This document shows, piece by piece, positions 49,646 to 49,810 of a stretch of DNA of 64,000 bases. A program made the translations under genes and the position numbers. The stretch is from a candidate division WOR-3 bacterium (GTDB taxonomy: Bacteria; Hydrothermota; Tepidihabitantia; SM23-42), in assembly GCA_029858255.1 (NCBI GenBank), contig JAOUFJ010000006.1:4285-68284 (forward strand). The letters run 5' to 3'. The notes below the pieces were generated by a model, which was not told the DNA's origin, made no database searches, and worked only from the letters and a program-made list of their open reading frames with translations. The first letter of the stretch is position 1; each line of letters opens with the position of its first letter.

Positions 49646-49654
49646 AGACCAAAA

Positions 49655-49750
49655 TGTGGATAAATTTGTAAAAGCTGTGGATAAGTTATTTGCATGGAAT
49701 TTCGAGCCTTTCTAGTTAATTTTAATTCACAATATTATGGGTTATCCACA
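49655..49750. promoter_or_regulatory. cluster of three perfect DnaA boxes (TTATCCACA) in the rpiB-MBL / moxR intergenic region
   Basis: TGTGGATAA at 49655-49663 and at 49676-49684 (21 bp apart, same orientation). TTATCCACA at 49742-49750 in inverted orientation. AT-rich stretch ttctagttaattttaattcacaatattat at 49711-49739 lies between them. Confidence 0.6.
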
Positions 49751-49810
49751 AACTCCTGCAATAACGCAGATTCTTAACAACATTATTTCAGGGCGATTTT
49801 TGGAGAACTA

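Follow-up and report, generated by a model that had tools for sequence, protein, structure and literature searches.

Within the 64 kb stretch of WOR-3 DNA analyzed here (the window), a 165 bp intergenic region (49646–49810) lies between an ORF for an MBL-fold protein (PRK04286-like; 48788–49645, plus strand) and moxR (49811–50794, plus strand), which encodes an AAA_3 MoxR-family ATPase (Pfam AAA_3, 9.5e-62; protein record name MoxR family ATPase). All three of the perfect DnaA boxes (TTATCCACA) present in the window are located in this region, against an expectation of 0.63 per window from dinucleotide shuffles. Their starts at 49655, 49676 and 49742 upstream of moxR, with 21 bp separating the first two, agree with the coordinates of the preliminary description. 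Box 1 (49655–49663), which follows the stop codon of the MBL gene by 9 bp, and box 2 (49676–49684) both lie on the minus strand, reading TGTGGATAA on the plus strand. Box 3 (49742–49750; 49741–49751 with its flanks) lies on the plus strand, inverted relative to boxes 1 and 2, with a gap of 57 bp between it and box 2. A degenerate box (box w; 49665–49673, minus strand; TTTGTAAAA on the plus strand) lies between boxes 1 and 2, at a distance of 1 bp from the former and 2 bp from the latter, and the left array reads TTATCCACA-gc-TTTTACAAA-t-TTATCCACA on the minus strand. The three perfect boxes and the degenerate one fit within 96 bp, at 61–156 bp 5′ of the moxR ATG. One-mismatch boxes showed no enrichment elsewhere in the window (15 found, 15.9 expected). 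A known RNA was rejected as an explanation for the spacer holding the boxes, with no Rfam match at E up to 1, and no tRNA overlaps it. As a UbiA-family gene (50807–51661) converges on moxR, the latter is monocistronic in the window. Elsewhere in the window, sizeable ORFs of up to 916 amino acids had no Pfam match at E up to 1e-6 (19839–21930, minus strand; 27100–31945, plus strand; 33067–34599, minus strand), one neighbor of these being a DUF6754 gene. It was also observed that the GC3 skew of minus-strand genes changes from about +0.2 at 50.8–57.5 kb to about 0 at 57.7–61.6 kb (57747–61634, minus strand), which could reflect the composition of individual genes or a local shift in replication or transcription bias.

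The MBL protein upstream of the boxes was used as bait to fetch relatives of the locus, which returned 13 metagenome loci with 65–80% protein identity. In all 13, three perfect boxes were found with unchanged orientation and at intervals of 21 bp and 66–68 bp. The element, together with the gene order ilvE-rpiB-MBL-[boxes]-moxR, is also present in four complete WOR-3 chromosomes (CP070686.1, CP070795.1, CP070705.1, and CP070664.1). Across 18 distinct WOR-3 sequences, 27 of 27 box columns were invariant in comparison to 16 of the 95 other columns of the element (hypergeometric P about 3e-16), with these non-box columns having a mean pairwise identity of 57.5%. In moxR and the MBL gene, four-fold degenerate sites were only 18–42% identical between the window and five of the lineages, and neutral positions are therefore saturated. 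The preliminary description had claimed from chance expectation that the cluster is not random; the conservation of the box columns proves this point, and on this comparison the triad is under strong purifying selection. Non-redundant WOR-3 DNA amounting to 207 kb contains 28 perfect boxes inside the element and a single one beyond it, the window having none elsewhere. In the two most divergent WOR-3 lineages (L146 and L150, with MoxR 71–72% identical), boxes 1 and 3 are perfect and box 2 carries one mismatch (TGTGGATAG and TGTGGAAAA) at unchanged spacing. Box 1 is thus perfect in all WOR-3 lineages examined (the 18 distinct sequences together with L146 and L150). Box 3 is flanked by an invariant G before and an invariant A after it, giving GTTATCCACAA, and the gap between boxes 2 and 3 is 57–59 bp throughout WOR-3.

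The 12 bp spacer between boxes 1 and 2 is, by its conserved columns, a degenerate box in helical phase with its neighbors. Its WOR-3 consensus is TnnGnAaAA, in which five columns are invariant (T1, G4, A6, A8, and A9), all of them agreeing with the DnaA box consensus; individual examples are TATGGATAA (L093) and TGCGGATAA (L091). Some WOR-3 sequences have a fourth direct box (TGTGAATAA) located 22–24 bp 5′ of box 1 (L091 5324–5332, L092 5853–5861, and L146 9861–9869), that of L146 overlapping the end of the MBL gene, where it starts 5 bp before the annotated stop.

The 3′ flank of moxR is variable while the 5′ flank is fixed, since other WOR-3 genomes carry different genes downstream. The UbiA, TPR and FlgD_ig/T9SS-tail genes which follow moxR in the window (50807–55491, minus strand) were seen only there and in L141 and L142. 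Further from the element, a gene for a C25 (gingipain-like) peptidase (37805–41260, minus strand) is shared with L143 and L146 and is missing between the Aminotran_5 and GAF-GGDEF genes of L138, L141, L142, and L150, an insertion or deletion amid otherwise conserved synteny. In one contig (L123; BARV01000266.1, 656–2496) plus-strand sequence with ilvE, rpiB and the 5′ part of the MBL gene is fused to a minus-strand segment that contains the 3′ end of this gene, the triad and moxR. This contig was considered as a natural inversion showing that the element travels with moxR and was rejected as such, as the 3′ end of the MBL gene still adjoins the element and the junction falls abruptly inside coding sequence; the contig is probably chimeric, or broken within genes.

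The spacer between boxes 2 and 3 contains two conserved blocks which fit a weak predicted sigma-70 promoter pointing at moxR. The first, GGAATTTCGAG (consensus GAAATTTC; 49696–49706, plus strand), contains the candidate −35 element of a promoter designated P1 (TTTCGA, 49700–49705). With sigma-70 scoring this −35 placement recurs at −42 relative to box 3, and AAATTTC is found at the equivalent position in an Eisenbacteria-type locus (L005) described below. The second block, tTAAT (49721–49728, plus strand), contains the candidate −10 element of P1, 17 bp after the candidate −35, which is TAATTC in the window and TAATAT in seven lineages. A conserved TnTTAT (TATTAT in the window; 49733–49738, plus strand) could serve as an alternative −10 element (P2). 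Transcription from P1 (TTTCGA, 17 bp, TAATAT) is predicted to start about 7 nt before box 3 and that from P2 inside box 3. On this prediction box 3 would occupy about +1 to +15, with the phased array upstream at about −50 to −85. Scoring of the moxR upstream sequences with the sigma-70 model gave three competing placements, namely the recurrent P1 and P2, and one downstream of box 3, none of which equals the strong consensus of the neighboring promoters. It should also be noted that P1 falls outside the three best-scoring placements in the window itself, and its −10 assignment therefore rests on the other lineages. A further element, TGCAATAACGCAG (49757–49769, plus strand), is conserved in the closer WOR-3 subgroup only and could, speculatively, be an extended −10-like element or a leader motif.

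The moxR ATG lies just 19–21 nt after box 3 in five lineages, and in these box 3 must therefore sit in or against the core promoter. Over all lineages the distance between box 3 and the ATG ranges from 19 to about 305 nt, so that another promoter may lie closer to moxR in some of them. Promoters of WOR-3 in general were found to be of the canonical sigma-70 type, with TTGACA-N17-TATAAT followed by AAGGAGG at glnA/ilvE and several other locations in the window. The divergent glnA/ilvE promoters (47227–47318) consist of TTGACA-N17-TATAAT and TTGACT-N17-TATAGT with AAGGAGG ribosome-binding sites, and are kept in seven WOR-3 lineages. A promoter of the Bacteroidetes −33/−7 type was also considered and found not to be applicable, the WOR-3 promoters being canonical despite the membership of WOR-3 in the FCB group.

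To place the element in a wider context, 80 moxR loci from GTDB genomes, with MoxR up to 63% identical, were compared. The motif IQFTPDLM is universal in MoxR. Relaxed boxes were not enriched upstream of moxR in these 80 loci (0.36 against 0.24 per kb) and the triad was found in only two of them, for which reason a general link between moxR and DnaA across bacteria was rejected; most moxR loci outside WOR-3, Eisenbacteria and Zixibacteria are without a triad. A composite search for box-N12-box-N52–65-inverted box identified one locus, L005, with no hits in shuffled controls. The MAG containing this locus (DATIQI010000271.1) is labeled Acidobacteriota. Its MoxR is 89–95% identical to a set of proteins among which those with a name belong to Candidatus Eisenbacteria, as do the named relatives of L005, and the label may be mis-assigned. 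Four Eisenbacteria-type loci, with a GC content of 67–70%, share the layout TGTGGATAA-N12-[GC]GTGGA[GAC]AA-N60-TTATGCACA, with box 1 perfect in 4/4 and box 3 starting 83–120 nt before moxR. The genes are arranged on one strand in the order rnpA-yidD-yidC-jag-mnmE-mnmG-rsmG-parA-parB-[triad]-moxR-DUF58-batA-mfd (L153 1–11017; L154; L155; L005 503–7885), with the triad about 10 kb from rnpA and inside a block transcribed through the site. A GC-rich palindrome directly 5′ of box 3 was also observed in this group (CCGATGCCGAAGCCATCGG and ACCGGCGCGCTCGGT; L153 about 9897–9915 and L005 about 5850–5865).

A search with the outer pair of boxes only revealed one further locus, in a Zixibacteria MAG (L004), where TGTTGATAA-N11-TGTGGACAA-N61-TTATCCACA is located between a bactofilin gene and moxR-DUF58. 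Here box 3 is situated within a palindrome, TGTGGTTTATCCACA (1043–1075), preceded by GAG-TAG-TAG, a sequence which meets a permissive DnaA-trio pattern relative to a two-mismatch box only. Three candidate phyla of the FCB group thus share one layout, that of box-N11/12-box-N57–61-inverted box followed by moxR, in which the gap between boxes 2 and 3 measures 60 bp for the Eisenbacteria loci and 61 bp for the Zixibacteria one. The upstream neighbor differs with the phylum, being the MBL gene in WOR-3, parB in Eisenbacteria and the bactofilin gene in the Zixibacteria MAG, with moxR always downstream and in the same orientation. The presence of the same triad 5′ of moxR behind three different upstream genes indicates that the element belongs to, or travels with, moxR.

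The preliminary description had left three options for the site: an origin displaced from dnaA, a datA/DARS-like site, or a DnaA-regulated promoter of moxR. For it to be the chromosomal oriC of WOR-3, with the AT-rich tract between boxes 2 and 3 acting as the unwinding element, three perfect boxes adjoining a tract of 83% AT would be suitable, as would the outer boxes, which share the relative orientation of R1 and R4 in E. coli oriC, and the homologous site in Eisenbacteria adjoins parB, a gene commonly near origins. An origin requires negative skew on its left flank. The GC3 skew was split by gene strand, and in the left flank of 49 kb, comprising 18 plus-strand and 18 minus-strand genes, it was 0.000 for plus-strand genes and +0.166 (on the plus strand) for minus-strand genes, which gives a replication component of +0.083. 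On the right flank this component is +0.11, so that within the 64 kb window the skew check suggested for an origin found positive values on both sides of the site and no change of sign. Six relatives likewise have positive replication GC3 skew on both flanks. They are not independent tests, as they share orthologous genes, the strong test being the 49 kb left flank of the window. The position of the locus in the four complete WOR-3 records (41–78% of length, on mixed strands) is uninformative on this question. The geometry also speaks against an origin. In a calibration with E. coli oriC, the 13-mers of the DUE lie 5′ of R1 when this is read as TGTGGATAA, and by this standard the AT-rich tract, being 3′ of box 2 and 5′ of box 3, is on the non-unwinding side of both. 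The correct unwinding sides, namely the coding end of the MBL gene and the moxR leader, are unconserved and lack conserved DnaA-trios. The trio runs there, looked for beside the boxes as had been advised, were mostly of three or fewer and no better than random (at least three in 42% of random trials), and almost no CTA trios were present on these sides. The 29-mer at 49711–49739 is indeed 83% AT, as first described, but the unwinding role proposed for it is not supported, since with respect to each neighboring box it lies on the wrong side and its AT content is not exceptional, four other promoter-bearing intergenic regions of the window reaching 0.83–0.90. In agreement with the preliminary description, no dnaA or dnaN was found in the window by Pfam analysis of all 47 long ORFs, nor were rpmH, parAB or gidAB, and the linkage to dnaA/dnaN that would favor an origin is thus missing from the 64 kb. 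In Eisenbacteria the genes on both sides of the site are co-directed and the raw skew does not rise across it, which fits an origin at dnaA/rpmH further upstream with replication passing through in the direction of moxR, as is also inferred for WOR-3. Taking the strand-corrected skew, the geometry of boxes and DUE, the missing trios and the gene context together, the origin reading is provisionally rejected for the window, and we would give it hardly any weight. It follows as a caution for origin prediction that a rule based on box clusters would probably call both the moxR site and its parB-adjacent counterpart in Eisenbacteria oriC.

The main rival to regulation of moxR is a chromosomal DnaA-control locus, either a titration cluster such as those of B. 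subtilis or a datA/DARS-like site acting on the nucleotide state of DnaA, whose location beside moxR would then be a coincidence or a minor aspect. In three phyla the boxes keep the same number, orientation and spacing, which suggests a specific nucleoprotein complex over a simple operator, and datA likewise needs three essential boxes at defined spacing and DARS oppositely oriented boxes (PMC10380432). In Eisenbacteria, moreover, the triad lies in the origin-proximal block rnpA-yidC-jag-mnmE-mnmG-rsmG-parA-parB, comparable to the location of datA and most B. subtilis clusters. As for the datA/DARS option of the preliminary description, the spacing is fixed and boxes 2 and 3 form an opposed pair, which is however as far as 57–61 bp apart, and the IHF consensus WATCARNNNNTTR expected between datA boxes is absent in 19/19 lineages. 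A titration cluster would have at least four closely spaced boxes with at most one mismatch; the triad has three such boxes and one weaker one, with the fourth box noted above in some lineages, and three strong boxes are few compared to the 4–8 of each B. subtilis cluster. Furthermore, the WOR-3 window contains no origin-proximal marker genes, and nothing would oblige a pure control locus to remain 5′ of moxR with a single orientation through three changes of the other flank. A control locus is on these grounds considered unlikely, although not to the degree of the origin. E. coli DARS1 is located upstream of uvrB, itself a DnaA-regulated gene, and therefore both roles can coexist; those of operator and control locus are not mutually exclusive. 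It is also conceivable that a different sequence-specific regulator of moxR binds the 9-mers, its recognition site being by chance the same as the DnaA box. The invariant sequence is the exact 9 bp high-affinity DnaA box, without conserved extension in boxes 1 and 2, the variants TTATGCACA and TGTGGAAAA (TTTTCCACA when read on the opposite strand) still conform to the DnaA consensus TTWTNCACA, and the degenerate middle site keeps only positions matching that consensus. Such a coincidence seems very improbable.

Control of moxR by DnaA, rather than an origin, is the most likely function, as the layout is found again 5′ of moxR in two further candidate phyla. Of the three options of the preliminary description, a DnaA-regulated moxR promoter is the one best supported, since in three phyla, and behind three different upstream genes, the triad precedes moxR with its orientation unchanged. 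The element has consensus boxes 5′ of a gene and a phased array suited to cooperative binding (box 1, 1 bp, weak box, 2 bp, box 2), box 3 being without an adjacent partner, and it keeps its position and orientation relative to moxR when the neighborhood changes. It is therefore a real and strongly selected element, and most likely, as judged from comparative sequence, a DnaA-controlled moxR promoter. That the triad is an operator through which DnaA would control moxR is held to be probable. Under this proposal DnaA, probably preferentially in the form of ATP-DnaA, would fill the phased strong-weak-strong array (boxes 1, w, and 2) at about 50–85 bp upstream of the transcription start. It would also bind box 3, the lone inverted site, located over or just after the start of the weak sigma-70 promoter predicted between boxes 2 and 3. 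This occupancy would probably be stabilized through an interaction with the upstream array, from which box 3 is separated by the constant spacer of 57–61 bp. RNA polymerase would be blocked by an occupied box 3, and expression of moxR would then track the level or nucleotide state of DnaA, and hence the replication cycle. The regulation may be repression, activation or both.

A more far-reaching proposal is that candidate phyla of the FCB group possess in the triad a cell-cycle switch that is both ancient and dedicated. A fixed three-box DnaA complex would in this case either couple replication initiation to the MoxR/Bat chaperone system or be a functional counterpart of datA/DARS in bacteria other than Proteobacteria, and the transcription of moxR would belong to its mechanism. 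This is offered as a tentative idea only, to which we assign somewhat less credence than to the control locus. Comparative sequence alone has here revealed that uncultivated lineages maintain a predicted DnaA site by very strong selection, with one rigid architecture across three candidate phyla tied to moxR, a gene with no known link to replication. If confirmed, MoxR would join the DnaA regulon, with the moxR-DUF58 operon in Eisenbacteria and the Zixibacteria MAG, and with batA also in Eisenbacteria, and the result would point to an unrecognized coupling of the replication cycle with a widespread and poorly understood AAA+ chaperone. A search of the literature found no paper linking DnaA boxes with MoxR. 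We know of no functional reason for DnaA to control MoxR, and to our knowledge the role of DnaA as a transcription factor or as a binder of non-origin clusters is known in only a few cultivated model bacteria.

Among known systems, the basal unwinding system (BUS) of oriC is defined as a DnaA box followed, after no more than 16 bp of spacer, by three or more NAN trios and then AT-rich DNA (Pelliciari et al., 2021; PMC8287927). The triad resembles it in having co-oriented consensus DnaA boxes near AT-rich DNA and differs in lacking DnaA-trios or AT-rich DNA 3′ of TTATCCACA, a skew switch, and linkage to dnaA/dnaN. With datA and DARS1/2 of E. coli (reviewed in PMC10380432), where DARS is defined by head-to-head boxes I and II with an assisting box III, the triad has in common a small number of boxes, the importance of arrangement and spacing, and oppositely oriented boxes. 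In contrast to these it has no IHF consensus, its opposed boxes are far apart and it is tied to one gene. In P. aeruginosa, DnaA boxes of oriCII and the gidA promoter in the origin-proximal gidAB-parAB block are reported to act on the adjacent promoter (PMC13438810). The Eisenbacteria triad lies at the end of the same block, although downstream of parB and not upstream of gidA, and the WOR-3 triad lies outside it.

The closest parallels may be drawn with boxes which regulate transcription. In E. coli, double DnaA boxes with a gap of 2–3 bp predict binding in vivo, while lone consensus boxes were bound in 13/32 cases (Stringer et al., 2024; PMC11317965). As at nrdA, purH, polA, and mioC in that study, the triad has a weak site phased with a consensus site upstream of a gene, with gaps of 1–2 bp here compared to 2–3 bp. 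It differs in that two consensus boxes surround the weak one, in that a third consensus box, of inverted orientation, lies downstream of the predicted promoter, and in that moxR, unlike the E. coli targets, is unrelated to nucleotide or DNA metabolism. In B. subtilis, DnaA directly regulates sda, ywlC, and yydA from intergenic clusters of 4–8 boxes, where local box density and affinity decide stable binding (Ishikawa et al., 2007; PMC2533591). The triad has three strong boxes and one weak box in a rigid layout with the inverted box 57–61 bp away, and both its target, moxR, and the phyla concerned are new. What it shares with the B. subtilis clusters is the presence of high-affinity boxes in an intergenic region away from the origin, beside a gene and conserved among relatives.
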